Positions 7,033-36,582 of a DNA stretch of 60,892 nt are shown here, piece after piece. How positions within the stretch are numbered: position 1 is the first letter of the stretch; the number at the start of each line of letters is the position of its first letter. The position numbers and the translations under genes were made by a program. Source of the DNA: a virus (taxonomy: Duplodnaviria > Heunggongvirae > Uroviricota > Caudoviricetes); IMG/VR virus record IMGVR_UViG_3300045988_133230. The stretch is one strand, 5' to 3'. The notes under the pieces are model-generated. The model was given only the letters and a program-made list of their open reading frames with translations, was not told the origin of the DNA and ran no database searches.

Positions 7033-8273
7033 TGTTCTTTTCGGGATTATTTCAACGAAAAAGTGACGCACCGGTGACCACGCCAGCAGAGCTGGCGGAT
7101 GCCATCGGGTTGTCCTACGACACCTATACCGGAAAGCAGATCAGCAGTCAGCGGGCCATGCGACTGACGGCGGTTTTTTCCTGCATCAGAGTGCTGGCAG
7201 AGTCGGTCGGGATGTTGCCCTGCAATCTGTATCACCTGAATGGCAGCCTGAAGCAGAGAGCCACCGGCGAACGTCTGCATAAGCTGATCTCCACGCATCC
7301 CAATGGCTATATGACGCCGCAGGAGTTCTGGGAGCTGGTGGTCACCTGTCTGTGCCTGAGGGGAAACTTTTACGCCTACAAAGTGAAAGCATTTGGCGAA
7401 GTGGCTGAACTGCTGCCCGTCGATCCTGGCTGTGTGGTACCGAAGCTTAACAGTAGCTGGGAGCCGGTCTATCAGGTCACATTCCCGGACGGCTCCACGG
7501 ATGTGCTGAGCCAGGAGGATATCTGGCATGTGCGCACGCTGACGCTGGACGGACTGGTGGGGCTGAATCCCATCGCCTATGCCCGCGAGGCAATATCGCT
7601 GGCGGCAGCGACTGAAGAGCACGGGGCCAGACTGTTCAGCAATGGTGCGGTGACGTCGGGTGTGTTGCGTACAGAGCAGACGCTGTCAGATCAGGCTTAT
7701 GAGCGCCTGAAGAAAGATTTTGAGGAGCGTCACACCGGGCTTGGCAATGCTCACCGCCCGATGATCCTTGAGATGGGGCTGGACTGGAAGTCGATGGCGC
7801 TGAACGCCGAGGACAGCCAGTTCCTGGAAACCCGCAAGTTTCAGCTTGAAGAAATCTGTCGTCTGTTCCGGGTACCGTTGCACATGGTGCAGAACACCGA
7901 TCGCGCCACCTTCAACAATATCGAAGAACTGGGGCTCGGATTTATCAACTATTCACTGGTGCCGTATCTGACCCGCATCGAACAGCGGATCAACACCGGA
8001 CTGGTACGAAAAAGTAAGCAGGGCGTTTATTACGCCAAATTTAACGCCGGGGCGTTACTGCGCGGGGATATGAAGTCCCGTTTTGAAGCCTACGCCACCG
8101 GGATCAACTGGGGAATTTACTCTCCCAATGACTGCCGCGACCTGGAAGATATGAATCCGCGTCCCGGTGGTGATGTCTATCTCACACCGATGAACATGAC
8201 CACGAAACCCTCCGATGGCAGTAAAGCCGGTAAGCAGAAGGATAACGCCAATGCAGACGAAACAACGTCTTGA
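7032..8273 (+). CDS. portal protein (HK97 family)
   Basis: 413 aa; gene order terminase-portal-protease-capsid; GTG start after GGAGG. Confidence 0.8.
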   Translation: MFFSGLFQRKSDAPVTTPAELADAIGLSYDTYTGKQISSQRAMRLTAVFSCIRVLAESVGMLPCNLYHLNGSLKQRATGERLHKLISTHPNGYMTPQEFWELVVTCLCLRGNFYAYKVKAFGEVAELLPVDPGCVVPKLNSSWEPVYQVTFPDGSTDVLSQEDIWHVRTLTLDGLVGLNPIAYAREAISLAAATEEHGARLFSNGAVTSGVLRTEQTLSDQAYERLKKDFEERHTGLGNAHRPMILEMGLDWKSMALNAEDSQFLETRKFQLEEICRLFRVPLHMVQNTDRATFNNIEELGLGFINYSLVPYLTRIEQRINTGLVRKSKQGVYYAKFNAGALLRGDMKSRFEAYATGINWGIYSPNDCRDLEDMNPRPGGDVYLTPMNMTTKPSDGSKAGKQKDNANADETTS

Positions 8274-19839: not shown

Positions 19840-20884
19840 ATTTCAGCGCCCGACGCTGGCAGAAAATATCAGTATGCTCCGTAACGATTTATTCGCCAGG
19901 CTGGACGTCAGCGACACGCTCCGGCGCATGGATGAAGACGTGCGGGCAAAGGTGTATGCGGCGGCGCTGCATACGGTTTACGGTTACATCGATTATCTGG
20001 CAATGAACATGCTGCCTGACCTGTGCGATGAGTCCTGGCTGGCGCGACATGCTGCGATGAAACGGTGTCCGCGCAAGGGGGCCACGGCTGCCAGCGGGTA
20101 TATGCGCTGGGAAGGTGTCAGCGATGGCCTGAAGGTGACCGCCGGGAGTGTTATTCAGCGCGATGACCTGGTTCAGTACACGGCAACTGCCGATGCAACC
20201 AGCGCCGGTGGTGTCCTGCGCGTGCCGATCGCCTGCTCAAGTGCAGGAGCGGTCGGTAACGCTGACGACGGTACGTCATTAATCCTGGTCACGCCGGTGA
20301 ATGGTCTGCCGTCTTCCGGCGTGGCAGACACTCTGACAGGTGGATTTGATACTGAAGAGCTGGAAACGTGGCGCGCCCGCGTCATTGAGCGGTATTACGG
20401 GACGCCTCAGGGCGGGGCTGACGGGGACTATGTAGTCTGGGCTAAAGAAGTGCCCGGCATTACCCGTGCATGGACATACCGCCACTGGATGGGAACGGGG
20501 ACTGTCGGTGTGATGATTGCCAGCAGTGACCTGATTAATCCCATTCCGGAAGAATCAACGGAAACGGCGGCAAGACAACACATTGAGCCACTGGCCCCGG
20601 TGGCAGGCTCTGATTTGTATGTATTCAGGCCGGTGGCGCATAAAGTGGATTTTCATATCCGCGTGACGCCGGACACACCGGAAATACGGGCTGCCATCAC
20701 CGCCGAGTTGCGTTCGTTCCTGCTGCGTGATGGTTATCCGCAGGGAGAACTGAAGGTGTCGCGTATCAGTGAGGCGATTTCCGGTGCGAACGGGGAATAC
20801 AGCCATCAGTTGCTTGCACCGGCGGACAATATCTCCATTGCAAAAAATGAACTGGCGGTACTGGGGACGATTTCATGGACGTGA
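19826..20884 (+). CDS. baseplate J-like protein
   Basis: 352 aa; corresponds to the e14 jayE region. Confidence 0.75.
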
Positions 20885-21459
20885 CAAACGATGATTACAT
20901 CCATCTGTTGTCGGCACTGTTGCCCCCCGGTCCGGCGTGGTCAGCCAGCGATCCGGCGATTGCCGGTGCGGCACCGTCATTAACCCGCGTTCATCAGCGT
21001 GCGGATGCCCTGATGCGGGAGCTGGATCCGCGCACCACCACCGAACTGATAAATCGCTGGGAGCGTCTGTGCGGCCTGCCGGATGAATGTATTCCCGCAG
21101 GGACACAGACCCTTCGCCAGCGTCAGCAACGACTGGATGCGAAGGTTAACCTGGCGGGCGGCATCAATGAGGATTTTTACCTTGCACAGCTTGCTGCCCT
21201 GGGCAGACCAGACGCCACCATCACGCGATACGACAAAAGCACGTTCACCTGCTCATCGGCCTGTACTGACGCGGTGAATGCGCCGGAATGGCGGTATTAC
21301 TGGCAGGTCGACATGCCAGCCGCCACCAACACCACCTGGATGACATGTGGCGATCCCTGTGATTCCGCACTGCGTATCTGGGGCGACACCGTTGTCGAGT
21401 GTGTGCTTAACAAACTCTGCCCGTCGCATACCTACGTAATTTTTAAATATCCGGAGTAA
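20875..21459 (+). CDS. tail protein (YmfQ / Mu gp48-like)
   Basis: 194 aa preceding tail fibre. Confidence 0.65.
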
Positions 21460-21462
21460 TCC

Positions 21463-22047
21463 ATGCATCGTATAGACACGAAAACCGCGCAGAAGGATAA
21501 GTTCGGCGCGGGTAAGAACGGTTTTACCCGTGGTAACCCCCAGACCGGCACACCTGCCACCGATCTGGATGATGACTACTTTGACATGTTGCAGGAGGAA
21601 CTTTGCAGTGTTGTGGAGGCATCCGGTGCCAGCCTGGAGAAGGGGCGGCATGACCAGCTGCTTACAGCGCTTCGTGCGCTGCTGTTAAGCCGCAAGAATC
21701 CGTTTGGCGATATCAAATCGGATGGCACGGTGAAAACGGCTCTCGAAAACCTTGGTTTGGGAGAAGGTGCTAACTGGGTTATGTTACCTGGAGGAATGAT
21801 AATTCAGCGTGTTTATCTTGGATTTCCTATTGGCACTAATGTAAGACATATAACTTTCCCCCGGTCGTTTACAACAACGAACTATTCCATCTCAATTAAC
21901 TGGAATGATATCGGTACTGTAACAACTGAAACACAATCACCAGCAAATGTGGCGGTTGTTCATCAAACAAAATCATTAACAGGGGCCAGCATCTGGCAGG
22001 CAGGTCCCGGGGGATTTAATGTGGACATTATAGCGGTGGGGTATTGA
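21463..22047 (+). CDS. tail fibre protein (constant N-terminus plus variable tip)
   Basis: 194 aa; contains the gix-like crossover site within ENLGLGEGA coding sequence. Confidence 0.7.
21740..21765. promoter_or_regulatory. candidate Hin/Gin-family crossover site (12-2-12)
   Basis: CTCTCGAAAACC-TT-GGTTTGGGAGAA; both half-sites fit the TTxTCxAAAACC pattern of gix/hix sites. Confidence 0.5.
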
Positions 22048-22048
22048 T

Positions 22049-22477
22049 ATGTACGTATGGAGCGCTAAAGCAAATGGCTTTTTCCCCATATCGGAGAAAG
22101 AAAAATTTGAGGCATCAGGTCTGTGGCCTGATGATGGTGTAATAGTCAGTGAGGAAGAACATAAAAAGTTATTTATGGATATTCCACCAGGAAAACAGAT
22201 TGGAACACTGAATGGAAAACCAGCACTGATAGATATTCCTCAGCCGACCAAAAAGGAATTAATAGCTATTGCTGAAGTTAAAAAATCCCAATTACGGGAA
22301 AAGGCTGACAGTGAAATATCCTGGCGTCAGGATGCTGTTGATGCTGATATCGCAACTGATGAAGAAGCTACAACTCTCACCCAATGGAAGAAATACCGTG
22401 TGCTGCTGATGCGTGTTGATACGTCAACAGCACCCGATATTGAATGGCCTACGCCTCCGGCAGTTCAGGCCAGATGA
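22049..22477 (+). CDS. tail fibre assembly protein
   Basis: 142 aa with C-terminal TSTAPDIEWP motif shared with the convergent copy. Confidence 0.7.
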   Translation: MYVWSAKANGFFPISEKEKFEASGLWPDDGVIVSEEEHKKLFMDIPPGKQIGTLNGKPALIDIPQPTKKELIAIAEVKKSQLREKADSEISWRQDAVDADIATDEEATTLTQWKKYRVLLMRVDTSTAPDIEWPTPPAVQAR

Positions 22478-23042
22478 CATCCGGCGCGGTGCTGGTATCT
22501 GTTGCCGTCACCGCGTCAATGTAATCCAGCACGGCGTTAAGTCGGGTTGTTTCTGCCTGAGTCAGTTTCCGTCCGGCCTGTAATTTCAGCTGAATCAGAC
22601 TAATGGAAGCCATTGCTGCATCAATCAGTGACTGGCGCTGTGCTTCTGCCGCGTCTACTGCGGCACTGTGTTGTGCCTCAGTGTCTGTCACCCATTTCTC
22701 ACCATCCCATTTATCGTATGGCGTTAACGGTGAAAGCGTGACATAACCGTCTTTGATGGCACCGATATAATCCACTGTAACAGCTGCACCATTTTCGATT
22801 GAGTAAACAGTCTCATTGCGATGGTCTTCCTCATGGCTCCATCCCTTACCTGTAAATACCGTCACTCTTCCCAGAATGTTTTCGCCCGGGTCAATACCAG
22901 TTGAACAGGCGGGCATACTTACGCCAGTATTAATATATTCATCAGACCAGCCCGTATACTCAGATGTTTCAGCATCATAATAAAAACAACGCATATCGCC
23001 CGGCACTGTAGCCAGCCCATTTTCATCAAAAACAGGTTTCAT
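22449..23042 (-). CDS. tail fibre assembly protein (alternative, inverted orientation)
   Basis: 197 aa, C-terminal TSTAPDVIWPELP; convergent with 22049-22477. Confidence 0.7.
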   Translation of the reverse strand: MKPVFDENGLATVPGDMRCFYYDAETSEYTGWSDEYINTGVSMPACSTGIDPGENILGRVTVFTGKGWSHEEDHRNETVYSIENGAAVTVDYIGAIKDGYVTLSPLTPYDKWDGEKWVTDTEAQHSAAVDAAEAQRQSLIDAAMASISLIQLKLQAGRKLTQAETTRLNAVLDYIDAVTATDTSTAPDVIWPELPEA

Positions 23043-23524
23043 TATTTAGCCCTCACCAGAAAGTTAAATGCAATATTTCGCGGTCTGACAGCAACAAAAT
23101 TCACACCATCACCCACAGAGTTACTGGTGAAATTAAATCGTGAAAATCCTGGCTGATTTCCGGCGATGCCATCATGAAAGTTAATTGCGTGTCCCGCACC
23201 TTCGCCTATATTCCCGGCAAACTGAGAAAAGTTTGTAGCTGCCTGCCAGCTTAATAATTCGCGACCACCATCTGCACCTCGCCCGTCATCCCAGACACGA
23301 ATGAAATCACCGCGTGCGTCAGGTAATGCCAACGCCGGAAACACTTTCGCCAGCACAGGGTAATCAGTGGCAGAAAATTTCGCCCCGTTGAACTTCAAAA
23401 ACACCATACTGGACCAGCTGTCGATTACAGTATTTGGCATTGCAGCGGACGCCCAGAAGAACGGAACGCCAATAGCTGGAGCACCTTCTCCCAAACTGCG
23501 ATGGCTCACTGCTGATATGTGCAA
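23042..23524 (-). CDS. alternative tail fibre C-terminal segment (promoterless variable tip)
   Basis: Begins ...SLGEGAP matching the junction residues of the plus-strand fibre; inverted 17-bp identity at 23480-23496. Confidence 0.6.
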   Translation of the reverse strand: MHISAVSHRSLGEGAPAIGVPFFWASAAMPNTVIDSWSSMVFLKFNGAKFSATDYPVLAKVFPALALPDARGDFIRVWDDGRGADGGRELLSWQAATNFSQFAGNIGEGAGHAINFHDGIAGNQPGFSRFNFTSNSVGDGVNFVAVRPRNIAFNFLVRAK

Positions 23525-23718
23525 TCGACGGGGAGTTCAGGATCAAGCGATATCGGACTCATCCTCAACACCACCTGATTAATTTGGAGAGCGGGAGAAG
23601 GGAGATGCTACCAGTAGATGATGACGGTTACGGTTCTGCTCCCGCGATATTCGGGGTGATTACTTACATCATTAATGATGCGAGGAACGCGGAGTTTGAT
23701 GATTGTCCGGTGATGTAA

Positions 23719-24387
23719 TCATATTGGCGTTATTAGTTCGGCGCCCTGATTTTTCACATTCCCGACGGCACGCGTTACGGCGTGCCATATAAATTTATCA
23801 GCCGGTACAACACCGTCGGCTGCAATTTCCGCTGCTTCTTTCCCTCCAACATCCTGCCTCATCCATTCACGCGCGGCTTCCGGTAGCAGTACCAGTGGTC
23901 GTCTGTCGTGAATATCAACCAGTCCTTTGTCAGCTGCAGCTGTAACTATCAGGAAACCTTCTGCTTCATCTCCACGTTCGAATGGTGTGCTGCCGATCGC
24001 CGCCATAAAAATCGGCTGACCGTCTGCCCGGTGAATAAAGTAGGGTTGTTTTTGGTCGCCTTCCTTTTTCCACTCATACCATCCATCAGCAAAGCAAATT
24101 GCGCGGCCATGCTGCCAGAGTGGTTTAAACATTCTGCTGGTGGCAGCAGTTTCAGACCGTGCATTAATGAGCGGCGGTTTATCCCACCAACCGGGGGCGT
24201 ATCCCCAGATAACTGGATCAAGATGCAACTGCTCATCACGTTCGCTCAGAAGCAGAACTTTTGTTCCTGGCGCTACGTTGAATCTTCCGATGGGTTCTGG
24301 ATCGTATGGAATATCGCGTTCTGATTCATCAGCGAGAAGGGCAAGATAATCTTCACGGGTCATTGACTGTGAAAAGCGTCCACACAT
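23719..24387 (-). CDS. SOS response-associated peptidase (SRAP/YedK family)
   Basis: 222 aa starting MCGRF with catalytic Cys2; family features recognisable by eye. Confidence 0.8.
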   Translation of the reverse strand: MCGRFSQSMTREDYLALLADESERDIPYDPEPIGRFNVAPGTKVLLLSERDEQLHLDPVIWGYAPGWWDKPPLINARSETAATSRMFKPLWQHGRAICFADGWYEWKKEGDQKQPYFIHRADGQPIFMAAIGSTPFERGDEAEGFLIVTAAADKGLVDIHDRRPLVLLPEAAREWMRQDVGGKEAAEIAADGVVPADKFIWHAVTRAVGNVKNQGAELITPI

Positions 24388-24586
24388 AGAAACCTCCAGC
24401 CGTATGTCAGACTGAAAGTATAGGGCAGTTAGAAAAAGTGGTGCACACCGTTAAAGATTTAAAAGGAGCATGTAAGGTAAATCGGAATGATGGTTTTGTG
24501 AATTGATGAATTCCGAAAGTGAAAAAGATACTTAATCATTGTGTGCTAGCGATACGGGGGCAACATTTGACGGGGTTTTTCCCCTG

Positions 24587-24708
24587 TAATTCCCCATTGC
24601 TTCCCCGTTCAGAAAACAGGCAAAAAAACCAGCCGTAACAGGCTGGTTCTTCGAGGATTTTTGGTCGGCACGAGAGGATTTGAACCTCCGCCCCCCGACA
24701 CCCCATAG
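24587..24708. repeat. 122-bp direct repeat copy 1 (tRNA 3' fragment plus terminator)
   Basis: About 97 percent identical to 25757-25879 by manual alignment. Confidence 0.85.
24662..24708 (-). other. tRNA-Pro-like 3' fragment (att-type remnant, not a complete gene)
   Basis: Reverse complement reads ...GGAGGTTCAAATCCTCTCGTGCCGACCA: T-arm, G72, A73 discriminator, CCA; no D-arm or 5' acceptor strand present. Confidence 0.65.
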
Positions 24709-24784
24709 TGTCGTGCTAATATTCTGATGGCCTATATGCGTCTACAGTAAGTTGATAGCATCATTCGTCGGTCGCTTCGTAGTC

Positions 24785-25600
24785 TCACATACGGATAAAA
24801 TTTTTTCTATTGATTTTGTCTCTATCAGAGCCATAAATGATGGTTGCAAAAAAACGACCTAATTCAAGATGGTGGAAGTGATTATCTTTTGCTTGAACTG
24901 TCATTGAGTCTAATATGTTATAGATGCATTCTATGATATGAATAACTAATAAAGTGCGATAACCAGCAAGCATTTCACTTCTTTTAAGTAAATAATTTAA
25001 ATCCCCTGCAGAGTTTATATGGTTTCTGTCTTCATCATAATATCCAAGCACATAGCATGGCAGTGTTTCACCATAGCTTCGGTATTGCTCGCATTTTTTA
25101 TCAATTATATTTTTTTGTCTTTTTGTTAATATTTTATCGTAAATGCTCTTATCGATTTCATTATACCATTGCTTCATGGGATCATTGTCGTTGTCATTAG
25201 TAATGAAATCAATATTACTATATCTTGATGAATTTGCAAAATTAGTTAACAACTCCATCACTCTGTAGTGAATTTCATTTAAGCCAGAGGGAGAATCAAC
25301 TCTCTCAATGACTAGGTTGAATAACTTGCTTAAGTTATGACCGTAATCTCTTAATTTTTTGCGTGATGTATATTTTCCATTTTTATTATAATCATCAAGC
25401 ATAAGGCAAAGTTTCATAAGCCTTTCTAATCCTAAACTGATGCCGGATAATGCTTGAAAATACAATCCTCTACTTGCAAAATTTGCTTTCCTTAGGGAAG
25501 TGAGCCCTATGCCTAATAATTGTCTTGAAAAGTCAACCTCATCAACAAATCTTCTGTATTTTTCATCCATAAAAACCTCAGTCAGCCAATTAATATTCAA
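24785..25600 (-). CDS. hypothetical 271-aa protein (cargo, possible abortive-infection type)
   Basis: AT-rich ORF lying between the two 122-bp direct repeats; no recognisable motif. Confidence 0.55.
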   Translation of the reverse strand: MNINWLTEVFMDEKYRRFVDEVDFSRQLLGIGLTSLRKANFASRGLYFQALSGISLGLERLMKLCLMLDDYNKNGKYTSRKKLRDYGHNLSKLFNLVIERVDSPSGLNEIHYRVMELLTNFANSSRYSNIDFITNDNDNDPMKQWYNEIDKSIYDKILTKRQKNIIDKKCEQYRSYGETLPCYVLGYYDEDRNHINSAGDLNYLLKRSEMLAGYRTLLVIHIIECIYNILDSMTVQAKDNHFHHLELGRFFATIIYGSDRDKINRKNFIRM

Positions 25601-25756
25601 GAATGATTTCTATAAAGAACTAATCTAGTTAAATCATCTGATGTAATTAGTATTACAATACCATCAGACGACATTGAAGCAGTATTGTGCCTTATCTACC
25701 CTATGTACGTCCATTGATAAAAATCTGCGCTTTTCGCAGTGGGGTCAATCGTAAGC

Positions 25757-25879
25757 TAATTTCCCCATTGCTTCCCCGTTCAGAAAACAGGCAAAAAAAA
25801 CCAGCCGTAACAGGCTGGTTCTTCGAGGATTTTTGGTCAGCACGAGAGGATTTGAACCTCCGCCCCCGACACCCCATAG
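25757..25879. repeat. 122-bp direct repeat copy 2, includes tRNA-Pro-like 3' fragment 25834-25879
   Basis: See copy 1; four point or length differences. Confidence 0.85.
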
Positions 25880-26073
25880 CGGTGATCTACCTTCTCATCA
25901 AGGGTAACCATGTGCCAGAAGCAGCCCTTGCGCACATTGGATGGGTATCAAATAATGAAGTAGGTCAACTTTATTAAATAAAATTGTGTTGGTTCAGATG
26001 ATCGAATGGGAATGAATAGTTTATTACTTTTGGTGACCGCAAGCGCGATCACCTTCGATTTGGTGGCAATTAC

Positions 26074-27042
26074 CTAGAATGATGCACAATCTTTAAGCTC
26101 TTTTTCTAGTTGTTCAACCAAGTCACAGCATTTTTTGATAACATCTTTAACTGACTCTGAATCTAACTTATGAAAATTACCATTTTTTGTTTTACCTGCT
26201 CGATGAACTAAGTCATGCCTAATTAACACGCTTTTATAAACTTCTGTGAAAACAGGGAATTTAATACCAAAGGTATCTCGATACATGCCACTTACTTTTG
26301 GCAGATTATGATAAAGAACACTCTTCATAGACTCTATCGCTTGAGACTCTATTTGTTCATGCCTTATAAATAATTCAGAAAGTAAGAATTTTTCTGTATT
26401 GTAATCTTTGAAGGTTTCAACAAAATTTCTCAAATTAGTTTGGCTACCATGAATTAGGGAAATAAATCTGTCACATAAATATGTTTCCAAGGAAGTTATT
26501 GTATTGGCATATAGCATATACGACATTTGTATTTGTAAAGTGCTATCAATTTTTAACTGAGCATCATTTAGTTTTATGGCGTTCTGCATACTATTTTGGA
26601 ATGTCATATAGACATCTCGTTCAGATAGCGTTCGATCATCAGAGTACTGCATATCAATAACATCTAGAATGCGCTGTTCAATTAATGAAGGTCTATTCAA
26701 CTGTAATATATCTATAGTCGCATGTCCTCGCTCAGTTAAACCTTCTAAATATCCATTTTTATTTTGTTTTATATGTTCTGAAAAACTTTCATTTAAAGGA
26801 TTTAGAAGTAATGGTTTGCCATTTTCATCGAGAGGAAACTGATCTTTTTTAATCATGCTACATGCCTTACAAGCGATGAGCAGGTTGTCTGTAGCATCTT
26901 GGAAGTCAGTATACTTTGATTTTGGGAAAAAACGATCAACATCCGCCATCAATGGTTCATAAAGTTTAGTGCCACAGTAAGCACATTGATGCTTAAACTT
27001 CTCCCATAGTTCAAGTTTAAACGTTTTATAATTCTTATTCAT
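26074..27042 (-). CDS. HNH-domain protein, 322 aa (N-terminal HNH-like nuclease, C-terminal unknown domain)
   Basis: CAYCG...DVDRFFPKSKY...NLLIACKACS resembles a Zn-finger HNH core; AT-rich; located where e14 carries mcrA. Confidence 0.6.
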   Translation of the reverse strand: MNKNYKTFKLELWEKFKHQCAYCGTKLYEPLMADVDRFFPKSKYTDFQDATDNLLIACKACSMIKKDQFPLDENGKPLLLNPLNESFSEHIKQNKNGYLEGLTERGHATIDILQLNRPSLIEQRILDVIDMQYSDDRTLSERDVYMTFQNSMQNAIKLNDAQLKIDSTLQIQMSYMLYANTITSLETYLCDRFISLIHGSQTNLRNFVETFKDYNTEKFLLSELFIRHEQIESQAIESMKSVLYHNLPKVSGMYRDTFGIKFPVFTEVYKSVLIRHDLVHRAGKTKNGNFHKLDSESVKDVIKKCCDLVEQLEKELKDCASF

Positions 27043-27486
27043 TGAATAGTTCCTTTATATTCTTGACTTGATTGTTTGTTTGCCAATTTAAGCCAAAGAC
27101 ACACGACTTTAATTGGGCTTGAATCATAGTTATATGTAATCTATTAAGCAAACACTTTTCATTAATAGCATGAGATAACGCTCAATTCTTTATTTTCCGG
27201 GAGTGTGTAACTTCATATCCACCTCTCACTCACAGCGTACGTTATTGGCGAAAAATTTAGTTAAGCCATTGATAGTTTGTGAAAACACGCATGATTTAAA
27301 ATCCCTTTGCCGTGAAGGGGCTGATAGGTACAGGCACTTGTTTTTGCCCTCTAAAACGGTTATCAAAACCAAAAAACATACATTGATAATCAATAGGTTA
27401 GGGGAAAGATAAAAGCCAGTTGATTTACAATAAAATTATAGGATTATTTTTATTTATCATGCGGTTGTATATGAACCATCTAACTA

Positions 27487-27651
27487 CTGCTGCGCCATAT
27501 GGGCTGGACTGAAGCCGCAGACCTGATTGTTAAAGGTATGGAAGGCGCGATCAACGCGAAAACCGTAACCTATGACTTCGAACGTCTGATGGAAGGCGCT
27601 AAACTGCTGAAATGTTCAGAGTTTGGTGACGCGATCATCAAGAACATGTAA
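27487..27651 (+). pseudogene. icd: icd 3' fragment (duplicated attachment segment, icdC-like)
   Basis: Encodes ...[53 protein letters not shown], the C-terminus of isocitrate dehydrogenase; upstream sequence is unrelated and AT-rich. Confidence 0.85.
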
Positions 27652-27717
27652 TCTCTACATGTGTTAAATATTGAAACGGGCGTATAACACGCCCGTTGTT
27701 TTATGATGATGTAAAAT

Positions 27718-27753
27718 CTTCCCCAAAACTTTCCCCAAAACCCTTCCCCAAAA
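27718..27753. repeat. three tandem TTCCCCAAAAC repeats (candidate integrase arm-type sites)
   Basis: Direct repeats between icd fragment/terminator hairpin (27674-27700) and int stop. Confidence 0.5.
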
Positions 27754-27764
27754 CTGGCTATTTT

Positions 27765-28907
27765 CTATGCTGTTTTGATATCTACGATAATCCAGTCTTT
27801 ACCACGATCATCATTGTATCGGTCGGTCATTTTTCTGGATTTATGGCCTAACAACTTTTGCGTATCCAGACCCTGTTCCCGATATAACCGTTCTGACAGA
27901 GATCGCTGCTCATGAAATGTGGGCGCAGTTCCTTGCTCCCATTTTATGCCACATTTTTCCCTGGCCTTTTTAAAAGCCGTTGTCAGAGTATTCGCAGAAA
28001 CCTGGTCTCCTCTGTTTGCTTGAGAGGTTGTGTGACGGTAATGGACCAGATATTTACTAACAACAGCATCCCTGCACTGAGATATAACTTCACGAAGGGT
28101 AATATTCAGAGCATCGCATTTCAGGTTAAGCGGAATAGCAAGTTTTGAACCGGTTTTTTCCTGAGTAATGTGCAACATGTCGTCCCAGATATCAGAGAAT
28201 TTCAAATTGCAGATATCGCCTAAACGTTGTCCAGTGACAAGAGCAAGTAGCATCCCACATTTTAAATAGGGCTGCCGTCTGCTTACGCTGTCAAATATTG
28301 CCTGCCATTCGGGCAGTGATAATCTTTGGCGGTTTACTCGATTTCGCGGTTGTTTTGTTGCCTGCGCTGGGTTAAATCCTGGCGGAACATGTCCTGCGTG
28401 TTGTGCTTCTTTGAAGACGTCGATTAACACCATTCTCACGACTTGCGCCATCCTGTTATGACCTTCAGCCTTTACAGCATCAATTATTTCGGCAATATCA
28501 AGTGCGGTAATATCCTTGAGGTGTTGCATTCCACAATGCTCACGGAAAAGACGAATGGGTTTGCCTTTTTGCCGATAGGAGTTGGGTCTTAGTTCATTAT
28601 GTTGCAGCCTGTCCTCCTGGATAGAAATATATTTATCAAGCCATTCTGTCACCGTAATGTCTGAGCGCCTGCCTTTCATTCTTTCCAGACGCTCATTGAC
28701 GCTTAATATTTGTCGGGTACGTTGTTCAGCAATAATGATATTTGCTTCAGTAGCAACTTGTTTTGCTTCATTCTCATCAGTTCCTAAGCTATGAAAACGA
28801 CCGGATAGTGGATGTTTGTATTGCCAATATACCTTTCCGGTTCGCTTATCTAATTTGCAATATAAATTGGGTATAGAGATTTTGTGAGATCGGGGTCTAG
28901 CAGCCAT
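27765..28907 (-). CDS. int: tyrosine integrase (e14 IntE-like, icd-targeting)
   Basis: 380 aa with C-terminal R...HxxR...Y catalytic region (LLGHKSRKMTDRY); adjacent to icd fragment. Confidence 0.9.
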   Translation of the reverse strand: MAARPRSHKISIPNLYCKLDKRTGKVYWQYKHPLSGRFHSLGTDENEAKQVATEANIIIAEQRTRQILSVNERLERMKGRRSDITVTEWLDKYISIQEDRLQHNELRPNSYRQKGKPIRLFREHCGMQHLKDITALDIAEIIDAVKAEGHNRMAQVVRMVLIDVFKEAQHAGHVPPGFNPAQATKQPRNRVNRQRLSLPEWQAIFDSVSRRQPYLKCGMLLALVTGQRLGDICNLKFSDIWDDMLHITQEKTGSKLAIPLNLKCDALNITLREVISQCRDAVVSKYLVHYRHTTSQANRGDQVSANTLTTAFKKAREKCGIKWEQGTAPTFHEQRSLSERLYREQGLDTQKLLGHKSRKMTDRYNDDRGKDWIIVDIKTA

Positions 28908-29133
28908 CAGCGATTATCCGTTGGAGTTTTGGGTTTGCGTTTATTGGGAGTTGCGGTTCTGCAAGCGTTCCTACAAAACGGGAATTTCGGTCAATCATCC
29001 AGTAGCGACCAACTTTTATAGCGGGTGGGGCCATCATTTTCCCTTGCGCGTATTTTTTCAGAACTCGCTCACTTGGTGCTAAGTCCCCAAATTCTTCTTT
29101 AGCCCAGTCCTGTAAAGTGATTAGTCGAGACAT
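28897..29133 (-). CDS. xis: excisionase
   Basis: 78 aa, overlaps int start; MSRLITLQDW... Xis-like winged helix. Confidence 0.7.
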   Translation of the reverse strand: MSRLITLQDWAKEEFGDLAPSERVLKKYAQGKMMAPPAIKVGRYWMIDRNSRFVGTLAEPQLPINANPKLQRIIADGC

Positions 29134-29272
29134 TTGTCCTCCTCTTAGCTGCTGAGGGAGTTTGTGACCGATATATCTGACATGATATTAAGCTCATGGC
29201 AGGTACATCTCTTGACTGGTCATAGAGATAAATTTAATGCTGAGAAATGCAGTATTGAATTTATCAATTTTT

Positions 29273-29512
29273 CTATTTCCTGCGTATGGCACGTAACTTC
29301 TTAATGTGTTCTGCCGTTTCGATCTCTTCTGCTATCCGATCTGCATCAGCTTTATTCACAGGTTCAAAGTCATGATTAAAGCGGAACATGCTGGCGATAC
29401 ATGTTCTGCCTTTTCGGATGTAGTGAACTTTGTTGTGGGTAGAACGCAGGATTTTGCAGGGAGTGCCGTGGTGGTCGACGTACCAGGTGTTAGGAAAAAT
29501 GATTCTGAACAT
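29273..29512 (-). CDS. hypothetical protein
   Basis: 79-aa ORF in early-left region. Confidence 0.4.
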   Translation of the reverse strand: MFRIIFPNTWYVDHHGTPCKILRSTHNKVHYIRKGRTCIASMFRFNHDFEPVNKADADRIAEEIETAEHIKKLRAIRRK

Positions 29513-29559
29513 TTTTACACCTCAGTTGGACGATGTTGAAATTTGCTGCTTTGAGGCCA

Positions 29560-29778
29560 TCACAGTCCCCATTGTTTGTTCTTAAGTTCGATCTCCTCCT
29601 GGCAACTTGCACAAGTCCGACAACCCTGAACGGCCAGGCGTCTTCGTTCATCTATCGGATCGCCACACTCACAACAATGAGTGGCAGATATAGCCTGGTG
29701 GTTCAGGCGGCGCATTTTTATTGCTGTGTTGCGCTGTAATTCTTCAATTTCTGATGCTGAATCAATGATGTCTGCCAT
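29560..29778 (-). CDS. TraR/DksA-family C4 zinc-finger protein
   Basis: CCECG...x17...CRTCASC four-Cys motif. Confidence 0.6.
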   Translation of the reverse strand: MADIIDSASEIEELQRNTAIKMRRLNHQAISATHCCECGDPIDERRRLAVQGCRTCASCQEEIELKNKQWGL

Positions 29779-29876
29779 CTTTCATTAATCCCTGAATTGT
29801 TGGTTAATACGCTTGAGGGTGAATGCGAATAATAAAAAAGGAGCCTGTAGCTCCATGATGATTTTGTTTTTCATGT

Positions 29877-30158
29877 TCACCGTTCCTTAAAGACGCCGTT
29901 TAACATGCCGATCGCCAGGCTTAAATGAGTCGGTGTGAATCCCATCAGCGTTACCGTTTCGCGGTGCTTCTTCAGTACGCTACGGCAAATGTCATCGACG
30001 TTTTTATCCGGAAACTGCTGTCTGGCTTTTTTGATTTCATAATTAGCCTGACGGGCAATACTGCGAAGGGCGTTTTCTTGCTGAGGTGTCATTGAACAAG
30101 TCCCATGTCGGCAAGCATAAGCACACAGAATATGAAGCCCGCTGCCAGAAAAATGCAT
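29877..30158 (-). CDS. small early protein (lambda orf61-like); true start possibly ATG at 30092
   Basis: Position and size in lambda b-region equivalent. Confidence 0.45.
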   Translation of the reverse strand: MHFSGSGLHILCAYACRHGTCSMTPQQENALRSIARQANYEIKKARQQFPDKNVDDICRSVLKKHRETVTLMGFTPTHLSLAIGMLNGVFKER

Positions 30159-30168
30159 TCAGTGGTTG

Positions 30169-30360
30169 TCATACCTGGTCTCTCTCATCTGCTTCTGCTT
30201 TCGCCACCATCATTTCCAGCTTTTGTGAAAGGGATGTGGCTAACGTATGAAATTCTTCGTCTGTTTCTACTGGTATTGGCACAAACCTGACTCCAATTTG
30301 AGCGAGGCTATGTGCCATCTCGATACTCGTTCTTAACTCAACGGGAGATGCTTTGTGCAT
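30169..30360 (-). CDS. small early protein (lambda orf63-like)
   Basis: 63 aa [19 protein letters not shown]...; recalled similarity to lambda orf63. Confidence 0.5.
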   Translation of the reverse strand: MHKASPVELRTSIEMAHSLAQIGVRFVPIPVETDEEFHTLATSLSQKLEMMVAKAEADERDQV

Positions 30361-30521
30361 ACAGCCCCTCGTTTATTATTTATCTCCTCAGCCAGCCGCT
30401 GGGCTTTCAGTGGATTTTGGATAACAGAAAGGCCGGGAAATACCCAGCCTCGCTTTGTAACGGAGTAGACGAAAGTGATCGCGCCTACCCGGATATTATC
30501 GTGAGGATGCGTCATCGCCAT
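30333..30521 (-). CDS. small early protein (lambda orf60a-like)
   Basis: 62-aa ORF immediately upstream of exo stop. Confidence 0.4.
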
Positions 30522-31192
30522 TGCTCCCCAAATACAAAACCAATTTCAGCCAGTGCCTCGTCCATTTTTTCGATGAACTCCGGCACCATCTCGTCAAAAC
30601 TCGCCATGTACTTTTCATCCCGCTCAACCACGACATAATGCAGTCCTTCACGCTTCATACGCGGGTCATAGTTGGCAAAGTACCAGGCATCTTTTCGCGT
30701 CACCCACATGCTGTACTGCACCTGGGCCATGTAAGCCGACTTTATGGCCTCGAAACCACCGAGCCGGAACTTCATGAAATCCCGGGAGGTAAACGGGCAT
30801 TTCAGCTCAAGGCCATTGCCGTCACTGCATAAACCATCGGGAGAGCAGGCGGTGCGCATACTTTCGTCGCGATAGATGATCGGGGATTCAGTAACATTCA
30901 CGCCGGAAGTGAATTCAAACAGGGTTCTGGCGTCGTTCTCGTACTGTTTTCCCCAGGCCAGCGCCTTAGCATTAACTTCCGGAGCCACACCGGTGCAAAC
31001 CTCAGCCAGCAGGGTGTGGAAGTAGGACATTTTCATGTCAGGCCACTTCTTTCCTGAGCGGGGCTTTGCTATCACGTTGTGAACTTCTGAAGCGGTGATG
31101 ACGCCGAGCCGTAATTTGTGCCATGCATCATCCCCCTGTTCGACAGCTCTCACGTCGATCCCGGTACGCTGCAGGATAATGTCCGGTATCAT
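30512..31192 (-). CDS. exo: lambda exonuclease (Red alpha)
   Basis: 226 aa, near-identical to lambda Exo as recalled. Confidence 0.95.
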
Positions 31193-31974
31193 GCTGCCGC
31201 CTTCTGCTCAGTGGCTTTCTGTTTCAGGAATCCAAGAGCTTTCACTGCTTCGGCCTGTGTCAGTTCTGACGATGCGCGAATGTCGCGGCGAAATATCTGG
31301 GAACAGAGCGGCAATAAGTCGTCATCCCATGTTTTATCCAGGGCGATCAGCAGAGTGTTAATCTCCTGCATGGTTTCATCGTTAACCGGAGTGATGTCGC
31401 GTTCTGGCTGACGTTCTGCAGTGTATGCAGTATTTTCGACAATGCGCTCGGCTTCATCCTTGTCATAGATACCAGCAAATCCGAAGGCGAGACGGGCACA
31501 CTGAATCATGGCTTTATGCCGTAACATCCGTTTGGGATGCGACTGCCACGGGCCGGTGATTTCTCTGCCTTCGCGGGTTTTGAATGGTTCGCGGCGGCAT
31601 TCATCCATCCACTCGGTAACGCAGATCGGATGATTACGGTCCTTGCGGTAAATCCGGCATGTACAGGATTCATTGTCCTGCTCAAAGTCCATGCCATCAA
31701 ACTGCTGGTTTTCATTGATGATGCGGGACCAGCCATCAACGCCCACCACCGGAACGATGCCGTTCTGCTTATCAGGGAAGGCGTAAATTTCTTTCGTCCA
31801 CGGATTAAGGCCGTACTGGTTGGCGACGATCAACAATGCGATGAACTGCGCATCGCTGGCATCGCCTTTAAATGCTGTCTGGCGAAGAGTGGTGATCAGT
31901 TCCTGTGGGTCGACAGAATCCATGCCGACACGTTCAGCCAGCTTCCCTGCCAGCGTTGCGAGTGCTGTACTCAT
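31189..31974 (-). CDS. bet: Red beta single-strand annealing protein
   Basis: 261 aa, near-identical to lambda Bet as recalled. Confidence 0.95.
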
Positions 31975-31979
31975 CCGTT

Positions 31980-32276
31980 TTATACCTCTGAATCAATATC
32001 AACCTGATGGTGAGCAATGGTTTCAACCATGTACCGGATGTGTTCTGCCATGCGCTCCTGAAACTCAACATCGTCATCAAACGCACGGGTAATGGCTTTT
32101 TTGCTGGCCCCGTGGCGTTGCAAATGATCGATGCAGAGTGATTCAAACAGGTGCTGGGACAGACCCTTTTCCATGTCGTCTGCCAGTTCTGCCTCTTTCT
32201 CTTCACGGGCGATCTGCTGGTAGTGACGTGCCCAGCTCTGAGCCTCAAGACGATCCTGAATGTAATAAGCGTTCAT
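31980..32276 (-). CDS. gam: Gam (RecBCD inhibitor), short form
   Basis: 98 aa [21 protein letters not shown]...; in-frame stop upstream precludes the long form. Confidence 0.9.
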
Positions 32277-32351
32277 GGCTGAACTCCTGAAAATGGCTGT
32301 GAAAATATCGCCCGCGAAATGCCCGGCTGATTAGGAAAACAGGAAAGGGGA

Positions 32352-32762
32352 TTAGTGATTGAGGCCGTTACCGCGTCCGTCGAGAAAAACTTCCACGAGC
32401 AAATCACGGGTATAAGTGCGCTCGATGCCGCGATGCAGATAAAGCCGTCCGCGTAAATTAGCTGATGCAGTCCAGGTACCATCTTTGTGTTTGACCAGCA
32501 TTCCTGGCATGACCGCACCTCGATTAACGGTCTGCGTTCCGTAATGTTGATGAACCATAAAAACTCCTGCCCGTAAGCTGGGCTGCTGAACATATAGAGA
32601 CTTCTGCGCGTATTCAGGCGGTGGATGGCCGCCGGTTGTCATAACTAAGCCGCCTCGTTGAAGCGACTGAGGTATGAGGTGTTGAGTTGATTTCAGCTGG
32701 TCACACCGACGTTCACGCGTCCGCTTCACCCCTCGCACTCCCCGGAGCCTGCTGAAATTCAA
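32352..32762 (-). CDS. hypothetical early-left protein in N position (start uncertain)
   Basis: Frame opens with TTG; first ATG at 32642 (MTTGG...); arginine-rich stretch KRTRERR upstream of that ATG. Confidence 0.4.
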
Positions 32763-33000
32763 GCTGCGGATCTAAGCGGTCATCGCAACGGTGAATCAGG
32801 TGATTGCCGTATCGTTGTGTTGTTGCGACATGGTGATAATAGCTATTGCTATTGACTATATCAATACTTATTGCTATTGATTGATGTGTTTTGATATTAA
32901 CTGTTTGATAGCAAAAAGAATTAATTTTGTGACTTGCATCGCATAGCGATAACTGAAGCGAGGTCGTGGTGGTTTTTTGAACGGTTTATGTGATGAGGGG
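32763..33000. promoter_or_regulatory. OL/pL-type control region
   Basis: Non-coding; three GCTATTG heptamers (32842, 32848, 32873), the same motif as in the cI-cro intergenic region. Confidence 0.5.
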
Positions 33001-33002
33001 AG

Positions 33003-33032
33003 GCAAAAGAAAACCCGGCACGACGGCCGGGG
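33003..33032 (-). terminator. intrinsic terminator after the cI-linked ORF
   Basis: Minus strand CCCGGC-CGTCGT-GCCGGG hairpin followed by TTTTCTTTT. Confidence 0.6.
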
Positions 33033-33035
33033 AAA

Positions 33036-33899
33036 TCATTTCGCATCTACAATAAATAACCTGTTTATCTGGCCTTTTTTAACAGTAGCCTTTGCGGTTA
33101 TAGTGAATACTGCAGATGGATCACCTTTGGTTGATATATATGCACTAAGAGCTCTAATATACGGGTTATTCTTCTTTCCTGCAGCTGGATCGCTAATTTC
33201 AGCAGTGATTCTCTTTTTTGAGTCATCACCATCTAAAATTATTTTAGCTGTCATATTTTGTGCATCAAATTCTGTAAGAAAAGCACGATACTCACGAAGA
33301 CCGAGAACTTCATCATCATCAAGCCTATCAATTTCAGCTTTATCTCTCTCGTTAACTTTTAGAAGGCAGCCGTCAACATTTGTTGCAACACTTATCTGAT
33401 CGCAAGTATTACCAATAGGTGATACTGCCTGCCTTACAGAGGGGCGAAGCTCTACAGCCATTCGGTCAATCAAAGAGATCAACTTATCAATGGTTCCAGC
33501 ATCCTTGTTTCCTAGTGCCTCTATGGCCTTTTCAAGTGACTGCTGCAAAGCTTTCATTTCATCTTTCTTGTTAGAATTTCTCGCAAAAATATATTGTAGT
33601 ATTGCGCCAAGTATAGTTGCGGCGATCCCCGAGAACAACTGGTTCTGAGTGGCGAAGTTAAGAACTGCTTCAAGAGTAAAGCAGTTAGCTTTTGCTTCGC
33701 GTGCGTAAACCTTAACTTCCTGATAATTAATGTATTTACTATATTTTTGTGTAACAGAGAAAGAAGCTGCTGTTGAGAGAACTTTAGAAAAACCCTTTAG
33801 GGATTCTCCTAGGCAGTTCAAATCTATTTCATGATTTAAAGCATCTTTTCCGTCATACCTAAGAGAGATTTTTATATCCTGTAAAGCGTCACAATCCAT
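33036..33899 (-). CDS. hypothetical 287-aa protein downstream of cI (rexAB slot)
   Basis: AT-rich ORF 66 bp downstream of cI stop, same strand, own terminator; one internal hydrophobic segment. Confidence 0.55.
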
Positions 33900-33965
33900 A
33901 AATCGCTCTCGTCTAATTCTAATTAAATTTACTATCCCCTAAACGACTCATCAGCACAGTACTGA

Positions 33966-34658
33966 TTATCCATGTTTCCTGTACGTCTGGGGCATGCTCC
34001 CAATAACCTTACCGAAGATGAACACCCGGTTCATCTCGTCTTTCTCGATCGGGTCCCACGGTGAGTAGCTCTTGTTATCAGAGATAACCAGCAGCTTATC
34101 CTTCATCATTTGCAGGCGCTTTACATGGGCGGTGTCGTCGTACAGAAACGCATAGATGCCATCACCGTCGAAAGATTTAACCGTGATATCAACGAACAGA
34201 AGATCACCAGGTTCAATCGTTCCTGACATGCTGTCACCGCGTACGTTAATGATGCGGATATTTTCTGCCTTCCTACCATCGAACATGTGACGAGCATCGT
34301 CAAACGAGTACTCAACCGAGCGTAGAACTTCTACAAACTCACGGTTGATGACTCCCGGCCCGGCACTCACTTCTATATCAAGAACGTCAATCTTGAAGTA
34401 TTTGGGATGGTTGGCAGTAGGCTTCCCTAATTGTTGACCGTCATTTCTCATCGGGCCTATGCCTGATGAGAGCCACTCTGTTCGAACACCCAATGCATTA
34501 GCTATTTCAACAATTTTTGTTGAGCCGCGCGCGTTGCCGCTTGTCAGTCTCCAGATTGTGGGTTGAGCTACGCCAGACGCCTTTGCAAGAGCGCCTTGAG
34601 ACATTCCAGATTGTTCCATCGCTAGGTTTAAGCGATCAGCAAGAGTTTCTTTTTTCAT
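33966..34658 (-). CDS. cI: CI-type repressor (HTH plus S24 LexA-like peptidase domain)
   Basis: HTH (QGALAKASGVAQPTIWRL), Ser-Lys dyad (GDSM...K); start placed at ATG 34658 (ORF track TTG at 34694). Confidence 0.85.
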   Translation of the reverse strand: MKKETLADRLNLAMEQSGMSQGALAKASGVAQPTIWRLTSGNARGSTKIVEIANALGVRTEWLSSGIGPMRNDGQQLGKPTANHPKYFKIDVLDIEVSAGPGVINREFVEVLRSVEYSFDDARHMFDGRKAENIRIINVRGDSMSGTIEPGDLLFVDITVKSFDGDGIYAFLYDDTAHVKRLQMMKDKLLVISDNKSYSPWDPIEKDEMNRVFIFGKVIGSMPQTYRKHG

Positions 34659-34768
34659 AAGTTTTAATTTATACGCTTGCGTATTGATGGTCAAAACACG
34701 TTTTGCTATTGCTGTGATTAATACGCATTGCTATTATTTATTCATTGTAATACCAATAGGAATTAATA
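34659..34768. promoter_or_regulatory. OR / pRM-pR divergent control region
   Basis: 14-bp perfect palindrome ATACGCTTGCGTAT (34671-34684) and GCTATT(G) repeats at 34705 and 34730 between divergent cI and cro. Confidence 0.6.
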
Positions 34769-34996
34769 ATGACAAATCAAACCATTCAACTCGCAATCAG
34801 TATTACAGGTAGTCAAAAACGACTGGCAGATCTATGCGGTGTAGCCCAGCCCACTGTTTGGCGTTGGCTACACGGTGGCGGAATTGATGCCCGCTATGTA
34901 ATGAAAATTGTCTCAGCCACTGGTGGAAAGATTAAACCAGCAGATATTCGTCCCGACCTCGCACCATTGTTTAACGCGAGTAATTCTGCCGCCTAA
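34769..34996 (+). CDS. cro: Cro-type HTH regulator
   Basis: 75 aa, HTH, divergent from cI. Confidence 0.75.
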   Translation: MTNQTIQLAISITGSQKRLADLCGVAQPTVWRWLHGGGIDARYVMKIVSATGGKIKPADIRPDLAPLFNASNSAA

Positions 34997-35020
34997 TCTG
35001 CGGCGTTAACTGATAAGGCA

Positions 35021-35566
35021 ATGACTATGCAACCACTTACATACCAACAGACTAGCGGATTTAGCCCGACTGCGGTGATAAATCGTTCTCAAACAAAACA
35101 GGCGCCAGGCCACGAAAAAATCCGTGATGCCGTTCGCGCCTGGTCGGCTGCAGATAATCAGGATGTTGTTGCCGCACTCATTGTGAATGAGTATCGGGAG
35201 CAGGGCGGCGGCACCATCGATTTCCCTGATGATGTCAGCCGTGCACGCCAGAAGCTGTTCCGCTTCCTCGATAACAAATTCGATTCTGAAAAATACCGAA
35301 ATAACGTGCGTGAACTGACCCCGGCAATTCTGGCGGTACTACCGCTGGAATATCGCGGCCACCTGGTTGAGCAGGATAGCTTCATGGCTCGGCTGGCTGA
35401 AATGGAAAAGGAACTCAGTGAGGCAAAACAGGCTGTCATTCTCAACGCACCACGCCACCAGAAACTGAAGGAGATGAGTGAAGGCATTGTGTCGATGTTT
35501 CGTGTGGACCCGGATCTGGCTGGTCCACTGATGGCGATGGTCACCACCATGCTGGGGGCAATATGA
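35021..35566 (+). CDS. regulatory protein in cII position (181 aa)
   Basis: Gene order cro - this ORF - O; longer than lambda cII. Confidence 0.5.
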   Translation: MTMQPLTYQQTSGFSPTAVINRSQTKQAPGHEKIRDAVRAWSAADNQDVVAALIVNEYREQGGGTIDFPDDVSRARQKLFRFLDNKFDSEKYRNNVRELTPAILAVLPLEYRGHLVEQDSFMARLAEMEKELSEAKQAVILNAPRHQKLKEMSEGIVSMFRVDPDLAGPLMAMVTTMLGAI

Positions 35567-35652
35567 CAGGTTCGGAAATGGCGAAAGCCGGTCTGCGCGA
35601 ACAGAACCGACTTTCAGGTGCAAATCGTAACACACTCATTGCGGGAGGAATT

Positions 35653-36582
35653 ATGGCAAACACTGCTGAGATATTCAATTTTCCAGTGCCGGATGTGGCA
35701 CAAAAGGAGCCGCGCGTGGCAGATCTCGATGATGGTTATACGCGCATTGCAAATGAGTTGCTGGAAGCTGTGATGCTGGCCGGATTAACACAGCACCAGC
35801 TTCTGGTCTTCCTGGCTGTCATGCGCAAAACATATGGCTTTAATAAAAAACTGGATTGGGTGAGCAACGAGCAACTTTCCGAGTTGACCGGGATATTGCC
35901 GCACAAGTGTTCTGCTGCAAAAAGTGTTCTGATAAAGCGTGGGATTTTTATTCAGAGCGGGCGGAATATCGGCATTAATAATGTGGTCAGTGAATGGTCA
36001 ACATTACCCGAATCAGGTAAGAAAAATAAAGTTTACCTGAAAGAGGTAAATTTACCTGAATCAGGTAAGAAAAGTTTACCCAAATCAGGTAAAGACGTTT
36101 ACCCGAATCAGGTAAACACAAAAGACAAACTAACAAAAGACAATATAAAACCTTTTTCGTCCGAGAATTCTGGCGAATCCTCTGACCAGCCAGAAAACGA
36201 TCTTCCTGTGGTGAAACCGGATGCTGCAATTCAGAGCGGCAGCAAGTGGGGGACAGCAGAAGACCTGACCGCCGCAGAGTGGATGTTTGACATGGTGAAG
36301 ACCATCGCGCCATCAGCCAGAAAACCGAATTTTGCAGGGTGGGCTAACGATATCCGCCTGATGCGTGAACGTGACGGACGTAACCACCGCGACATGTGTG
36401 TACTGTTCCGCTGGGCATGCCAGGACAACTTCTGGTCCGGTAACGTGCTAAGTCCGGCCAAACTCCGCGACAAGTGGACCCAACTCGAAATCAACCGTAA
36501 CAAGCAACAGGCTGGCGTGACAGCCGGAAAATCAAAACTCGACCTGACAAACACTGACTGGATTTATGGGGTGGATTTATGA
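35653..36582 (+). CDS. O: replication initiator O
   Basis: MANTAEIFNF...ADLDDGY resembles lambda O N-terminus; contains iterons; upstream in-frame ATG at 35563 possible. Confidence 0.8.
   Translation: MANTAEIFNFPVPDVAQKEPRVADLDDGYTRIANELLEAVMLAGLTQHQLLVFLAVMRKTYGFNKKLDWVSNEQLSELTGILPHKCSAAKSVLIKRGIFIQSGRNIGINNVVSEWSTLPESGKKNKVYLKEVNLPESGKKSLPKSGKDVYPNQVNTKDKLTKDNIKPFSSENSGESSDQPENDLPVVKPDAAIQSGSKWGTAEDLTAAEWMFDMVKTIAPSARKPNFAGWANDIRLMRERDGRNHRDMCVLFRWACQDNFWSGNVLSPAKLRDKWTQLEINRNKQQAGVTAGKSKLDLTNTDWIYGVDL
36004..36115. repeat. origin iterons (four TTACCCGAATCAGGTAA-type 17-mers plus one degenerate) within O
   Basis: Copies at 36004, 36052, 36076, 36099 (degenerate 36032), followed by an A-rich tract. 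Confidence 0.8.

Follow-up and report, generated by a model that had tools for sequence, protein, structure and literature searches.

Why does the end of the isocitrate dehydrogenase gene (icd) of Escherichia coli stand in the middle of phage DNA, next to an integrase gene? The question is raised by a stretch of 60,892 nucleotides of viral DNA (hereafter the window, by which we mean this whole stretch), near whose center a first-pass annotation, made from the letters alone, had noticed a C-terminal icd coding fragment, a terminator hairpin and three tandem repeats beside int. It had proposed that two icd-targeting phages were integrated here one behind the other.

Phages that integrate in icd carry a replacement for the 3' end of the gene, so that icd stays intact (PMC10111431); the gene survives integration because the phage brings its last 164 nt together with the terminator. 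The displaced original end of icd persists as a pseudogene on the far side of the element, like icdC in K-12 (PMC13626634), and tandem arrays of integrative elements have been described, icd included (PMC7192596). The answer that we reach, with a probability of roughly 0.9, is that positions 27340-27755 of the window are a recombinant attachment site lying inside an array of two prophages in E. coli icd. The prophage to its left (1-27487) is called prophage A below and the one to its right (27488-60892) prophage B; both are described on the plus strand.

The icd fragment and its terminator

To delimit the fragment, K-12 icd and its downstream flank were compared with the window by BLAST. Nucleotides 1088-1251 of icd and 54 nt downstream of the gene matched 27488-27705 with 86.7% identity, while nucleotides 1-1087 were absent from the whole window, where 27488-27651 was the sole icd match. 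No intact icd is thus found immediately adjacent to the fragment or anywhere else in the window.

The fragment (27488-27651, plus strand) comprises 53 codons from 27490, with the stop codon at 27649-27651, and the translation of 27490-27651 is that of the final 53 residues of isocitrate dehydrogenase followed by the stop. The annotated 165-bp piece is therefore present but needs two corrections. Base 27487 lies outside the match because it is a C in the window and an A in icd, which leaves 164 nt, inside the conventional 165-nt fragment that is the size of K-12 icdC. Moreover, the homologous block runs ~53 nt beyond the stop codon, to a total of ~217 bp. The recombination core is somewhere within the 27488-27651 fragment.

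The allele is that of a phage-21-type replacement copy. Only 2 mismatches separate it from the 21-like copy that completes icd in strain Z0117EC0036, compared to 9 for phage 21 itself, 12 each for K-12 icdC and the K-12 e14 copy, and ~11 differing positions in the alignment with the attR allele of strain fEC.1. The block is purely of the 21 type from end to end, with no mosaic inside.

Downstream, 27652-27704 (plus strand) is a copy of the icd 3' untranslated region that includes a rho-independent terminator, and it is shared with the DNA downstream of chromosomal icd up to ~27704. The terminator (27675-27704) consists of a 9-bp G+C-rich stem, in which 27675-27683 pairs with 27689-27697, then GTTTTAT and a T-run to 27704. 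Its hairpin folds at -20.6 kcal/mol (z = -3.7), and none of 200 shuffled sequences folded as well. The same element is labelled 'terminator' in the phage 21 record OL657228. A scan of 22000-36000 against Rfam returned no RNA family. The small RNA svsR, from the icd prophage of strain NC101, was considered as a candidate at the junction and rejected, as it sits in cI.

Two unrelated prophages flank the fragment

Prophage DNA had been claimed for both sides of the fragment, with the cargo end of a Mu-tailed prophage on the left and int-xis of a lambda-like prophage on the right, and the matches bear this out: the late operon of an SfII/SfI-like myovirus lies to the left, and lambda-like early and late genes, starting with int and xis, lie to the right.

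Prophage B is a lambda-like siphovirus with the integration module of phage 21, cut off in its tail genes by the end of the window. Its DNA is 98.3% identical to attP-int-xis of phage 21 (OL657228; 1991 record M61865) from 27485 to at least 29200. The int gene (27765-28907, minus strand) encodes a phage-21-type tyrosine integrase of 380 aa, of which 376 residues are those of phage 21 Int; it carries the N-terminal arm-binding domain Arm-DNA-bind_1 (PF09003, E = 1e-28) and the Phage_integrase domain (PF00589, E = 9e-24), and it is 60% identical to IntE of e14. Overlapping it by 11 nt, xis (28897-29133, minus strand) encodes a 78-aa protein with a Pfam Exc match (E = 6.7e-6), labelled excisionase in phage 21 and in RefSeq relatives. 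Further right, the prophage carries exo/bet/gam, replication genes and a lambda-type terminase, portal and tape measure, and 36000-60892 shows 95-97% identity to the lambda-like phages Turner and PhiR47_2.

The beginning of prophage B also occurs without prophage A. Many genomes have a single icd prophage that matches 27488-32000 with 99.2-99.6% identity. The same int-xis directly adjoins an intact icd in numerous strains, Z0117EC0036 and NC101 among them, and there the homology to the window starts exactly at 27488.

Prophage A is represented by its late operon through to the cargo end. Between 2200 and 23500, it is 96.6-97.6% identical to phages vB_EcoM-689R6, SfII and SfI, with terminase, portal, capsid, sheath, tape measure and baseplate among the genes that match these myoviruses. 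Its right part, 20000-27704, shows 99.6-99.8% identity to the right end of a single icd prophage in strain fEC.1. There, the prophage ends with an icd fragment that is followed by the chromosomal genes iraM, ycgX and bluR, and its left end has a 375-aa e14-type integrase and xisE adjoining an intact icd. Together with the type of its att site (see below), the fEC.1 match identifies prophage A as a full-length relative of the e14 remnant of K-12, using an e14-type att. On the model of such relatives, its early region, int and xis, and the intact icd, would lie beyond the left edge of the window.

Two further features of prophage A may be mentioned. At 23496/23497, the window is without 1,502 bp that are found in fEC.1 (locus L003, 8498-9999), where they carry a pin-type invertase, dinI and part of an S24 peptidase pseudogene; owing to this 1.5-kb deletion, the tail-fibre inversion switch of prophage A is gone. 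In the cargo region, a direct repeat of ~120 bp (24590-24708 and 25761-25879, 97-100% identical), also present in fEC.1, reads on the minus strand as the 3' half of a tRNA ending in ...GGAGGTTCAAATCCTCTCGTGCCGACCA, followed by a hairpin terminator. It resembles tRNA-Pro; ARAGORN detected no full tRNA in the window. Between the two copies is a 271-aa open reading frame (24785-25600, minus strand) with no Pfam hit. The two copies resemble the duplicated att of a further small integrative element within the cargo of prophage A.

A hybrid attachment site

Exact copies of TTCCCCAAAA begin at 27719, 27731 and 27744, in agreement with the three tandem repeats first noticed beside int, and there are no others in the 60.9-kb window. 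Tandem Repeats Finder describes them as 3 copies with a period of 12-13. They belong to three 12-mers YYTTCCCCAAAA, at 27717-27728, 27729-27740 and 27742-27753, which together form a set of tandem arm-type sites of the phage-21-type P' arm (27717-27753, plus strand). The repeats are identical in phage 21, in strain 82.0311 and in Z0117EC0036.

Both the repeats and the hairpin had been suggested as arm-type integrase sites. This suggestion holds for the repeats, which the GenBank record of phage 21 annotates as "attP subsites P1P2P3, consensus YYTTCCCCAAAA", but not for the hairpin, since it is a copy of the icd terminator. Judging from this annotation and from what Wang et al. 1997 reportedly found, the repeats are probably bound by Int.

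The other side of the icd block has an arm of a different type. The segment 27340-27487 (plus strand) is the P arm of an e14-type att site, on the attR side of prophage A. It is identical to the attR arm of fEC.1, and the alignment shows it to be homologous to the mcrA-icdC spacer of K-12 e14 and to the junction in 82.0311. Within it, GTTATCAAAAC (27359-27369, plus strand), which contains TTATCAAAA, is a predicted candidate for an e14-type arm-type integrase site.

The spacing of the motifs places the window between two known arrangements. In the attP of phage 21, TTCCCCAAAA occurs once 128 bp before the icd block and three times from 68 bp after the stop codon, whereas in K-12 e14, TTATCAAAA occurs once 127 bp before the block and three times from 70 bp after the stop. 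The window combines the two, with one e14-type TTATCAAAA at 27360, 128 bp before the block, and three 21-type motifs from 68 bp after the stop; the span between the outermost motifs is 394 bp, compared to 395 bp in phage 21. The e14 and 21 att sites have a core in common and the same arm geometry, with a single site near -128 bp and a group of three near +68 to +70 bp; their arm motifs, TTATCAAAA and TTCCCCAAAA, differ in central bases only.

To find where one type gives way to the other, a seven-way alignment was made of the window, phage 21 attP, both attL and attR of K-12 e14, attR of fEC.1, a single 21-like attL and the 82.0311 junction. This includes the comparison with the e14 attL and attR that the first-pass annotation had recommended as a check. 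The window follows the fEC.1 arm without a difference up to 27487 and has 21-type sequence from 27488 rightward. With an e14-type motif on the left and a 21-type motif on the right, the site is therefore a hybrid, made of an e14-type P arm, a shared icd block and a 21-type P' arm, as had been supposed when the fragment was described as a shared hybrid att.

The hybrid nature of the site also accounts for a missing element. No 21-type arm site is found ~128 bp upstream of the icd block in the window, where TTATCAAAA occupies the spot, because this is a prophage-prophage junction and not an attP. A 21-type P arm is present at the far end of the 21-like prophage in 82.0311 (locus L008, 25379), and that of prophage B should likewise sit at its far end, beyond the window.

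The last ~60 bp of the e14-type P arm (27427-27487) recognisably resemble the P arm of the 21 type. On account of this likeness, the two types of att site seem to have diverged from a common ancestor and not to have arisen independently. A search of the phage collection with the left arm found no phage with an e14-type attP, and only these last ~60 bp resembled 21-type P arms.

A simpler description of the window would be that of one phage genome in packaging order, with the icd fragment as its own attP. The succession of tail fibres, cargo, att, int, xis and exo/bet/gam is indeed that of lambda and phage 21. However, the window contains two complete and unrelated sets of packaging, head and tail genes, one of a myovirus and one of a siphovirus; the left arm has an e14-type motif where phage 21 has a 21-type one; and each half is found alone at icd in other genomes. 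We consider the single-phage description ruled out, and the junction of two prophages is the reading retained.

Tandem arrays at icd in complete genomes

The proposal of two icd-targeting phages in tandem is supported by further observations. Independent gene sets flank the fragment (myovirus terminase, portal, sheath and tape measure on the left, and a lambda-type terminase, portal and tape measure on the right), each half occurs alone elsewhere, and a full array of the same kind is present in strain 82.0311. This array runs from rluE and an intact icd through cargo, intE, xisE and an e14-like myovirus to a second icd 3' end (icd'), and continues with a 21-type int and xis and a lambda-like phage carrying sitABCD to a third (icd''), followed by ycgX and bluR. 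It thus has three icd 3' blocks, and its junction is of the window's type (e14-type arm, icd fragment, 21-type int). The same junction, covered end to end, is found in 82.0312, PEC131 and PEC165.

These genomes bear on the possibility that the window was misassembled across the ~217-bp block, in which case the true order or linkage of the two prophages would differ. The block is longer than typical short-read k-mers, and a strain carrying two icd elements would have three copies of it; the reverse order of elements exists in other genomes, and this possibility was assessed from assembled sequence. A mis-join is nevertheless highly improbable, because at least four complete genomes, independent of one another, have the same type of junction, and the switch from A to B falls exactly at the left edge of the block, within which the allele is uniformly of the 21 type.

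This exact pair of prophages is absent from the complete E. coli collection, in which no locus covered ≥80% of 20000-32000. The site itself is widely occupied. The 217-bp block was found at 8,155 places across 5,426 complete E. coli genomes, an average of 1.5 per genome, and in a small sample of 60 evenly spaced complete records, it was present once in 31, twice in 27 and three times in 2. By these counts, icd is a heavily used landing site, sometimes with more than one element.

Other combinations are found as well. FXCREC028 has two 21-type elements at icd, and the reverse order (21-type P arm, icd', e14 P' arm) is present in an engineered K-12 with luxR cargo, in MS1657 and in VTB96929v. 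We considered deducing the order of arrival from the order of elements in the array but dropped this approach, as both orders occur in genomes and the crossover point could be placed only within the block.

In NZ_CP174267, a K-12 MG1655 derivative, the engineered luxR insert lies between icd and e14 and is bounded by a phage 21 P arm joined to an icd fragment and an e14 P' arm. By this layout, a 21-type attP construct landed on the icd-proximal side of a resident e14, opposite to the order in the window.

In CFT073, Nissle 1917 and related genomes, the attR of the 21-type prophage matched a chimeric query up to position 402, a position within the e14-type TTATCAAAA repeats, and then continued into ymgL. 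An e14-type element could once have lain downstream of the 21-type prophage and have left this attR as a scar when it was lost.

Some arrays carry traces of later change. The junction icd fragment of 82.0311 (locus L001, 20135-20302) differs from the window's at 8 of 164 positions and is apparently mosaic, its first ~50 nt being a K-12 icdC/e14-like allele and the rest 21-like, which points to exchange between the three repeated blocks, by recombination or gene conversion. In fEC.1, a third, older element seems to have left a remnant at the site. There, the DNA between the intact icd and the e14-type prophage (locus L011, 7037-8091) contains three copies of TTATCAAAA, a gene of hypothetical function, part of an integrase gene interrupted by a stop codon, and a decayed icd 3' fragment of 81% identity. 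The mosaic and the decayed fragment show that icd arrays are reshaped over time.

The array in the window might then be real and yet have been inherited, or built by homologous recombination between the icd blocks of different lysogens, for example after transduction, so that one or both prophages might not excise. In favor of such an origin are the same mosaic in 82.0311, the decayed third icd fragment and integrase remnant retained by fEC.1, and the loss from prophage A of 1.5 kb including the pin invertase. Its end product would, however, be identical to that of site-specific integration, and int-xis of prophage B and the arm sites are intact. We judge this origin improbable and prefer two site-specific integrations as the source of the array.

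Proposed formation of the array and excision of its members

Two integrations in icd would leave three blocks. The first block would complete icd and would have been supplied by the icd-proximal element, the middle one would be the copy brought by the distal element, and the last would be the original chromosomal end of icd. On this scheme, the block in the window is the middle one. The working icd would be completed by the copy of prophage A itself, beyond the window, and the copy at the junction should be silent, being cut off by prophage A from the 5' part of icd and having no promoter. As the ends of the array (the intact icd, the integrase of prophage A and the attR of prophage B) lie outside the window, they are drawn here from relatives.

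At the junction, the adjacent 21-type integrase would recognize the three repeats as its P' arm-type sites by means of its N-terminal arm-binding domain. Excision of prophage B would use this junction, as its P' arm, together with the far end of prophage B, and excision of prophage A would use its icd-proximal end together with this junction as its P arm. Each prophage would keep both of its own arms, with the sites needed for its own excision, and should be able to excise by its own Int and Xis without the other.

Most of what the locus contains is familiar. The layout, the integrase sites of phage 21, the difference in specificity between the e14 and 21 types and the biology of tandem lysogens at icd are already described, and every element is known; the particulars that are local to the window are this specific prophage pair and the 1.5-kb deletion in the invertase region of the left prophage. 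For annotation, the window is to be treated as two prophages, an SfII-like myovirus and a lambda-like siphovirus with the boundary exactly at 27487/27488, and not as one 60-kb element, and this explains the stray icd fragment between them.

A broader speculation, to which we give little credence, is that the e14-type and 21-type att sites form a natural matched pair, whose hybrid junctions could swap arms between unrelated phages and so give new att/int combinations, and that the order of elements in icd arrays might record their order of arrival.

Comparison with known systems

The closest counterpart of the right side of the junction is phage 21 (OL657228), which has the same order and spacing of an ICDH-like icd pseudogene, a terminator, three YYTTCCCCAAAA subsites, int and xis. 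Its fourth TTCCCCAAAA, upstream of the icd block, is the one element replaced in the window, where an e14-type arm with TTATCAAAA stands instead.

The left side has its counterpart in the attR of K-12 e14 (mcrA-icdC), where a homologous P arm with the same TTATCAAAA at the same distance precedes a 165-nt icd 3' fragment. In K-12, this fragment is the original chromosomal end of icd and is followed by iraM, whereas the window has a phage-21-type copy here, with a second prophage behind it. Moreover, K-12 e14 is a 15-kb remnant, while the left prophage of the window is an SfII-like myovirus of full length.

The location of e14 in icd was reportedly established by Hill et al. 1989. According to Wang et al. 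1997 (J Bacteriol 179:5705), phage 21 and e14 reportedly share one attB and form adjacent prophages, with ~209 bp of icd homology, and the minimal attP of phage 21 is reported to be between 366 and 418 bp long and bounded by repeated dodecamers. That case likewise has two heterologous elements with related integrases side by side in icd, with specificity residing in the arms. Cross-excision between the two was reportedly poor, and the 60% identity of the integrases and the differing arm motifs fit this report. The laboratory pair is K-12 e14 and phage 21, and in the engineered K-12 the 21-type element stands between icd and e14, whereas in the window the e14-type element comes first.

Finally, the attP of lambda likewise has three tandem arm-type sites (P'1-P'2-P'3) in its int-proximal arm and a heterobivalent integrase with Arm-DNA-bind_1. 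Compared to lambda, the sites in the window differ in sequence, the core lies within a ~217-bp copy of the end of a host gene, and the att site extends over ~395 bp between its outermost motifs.
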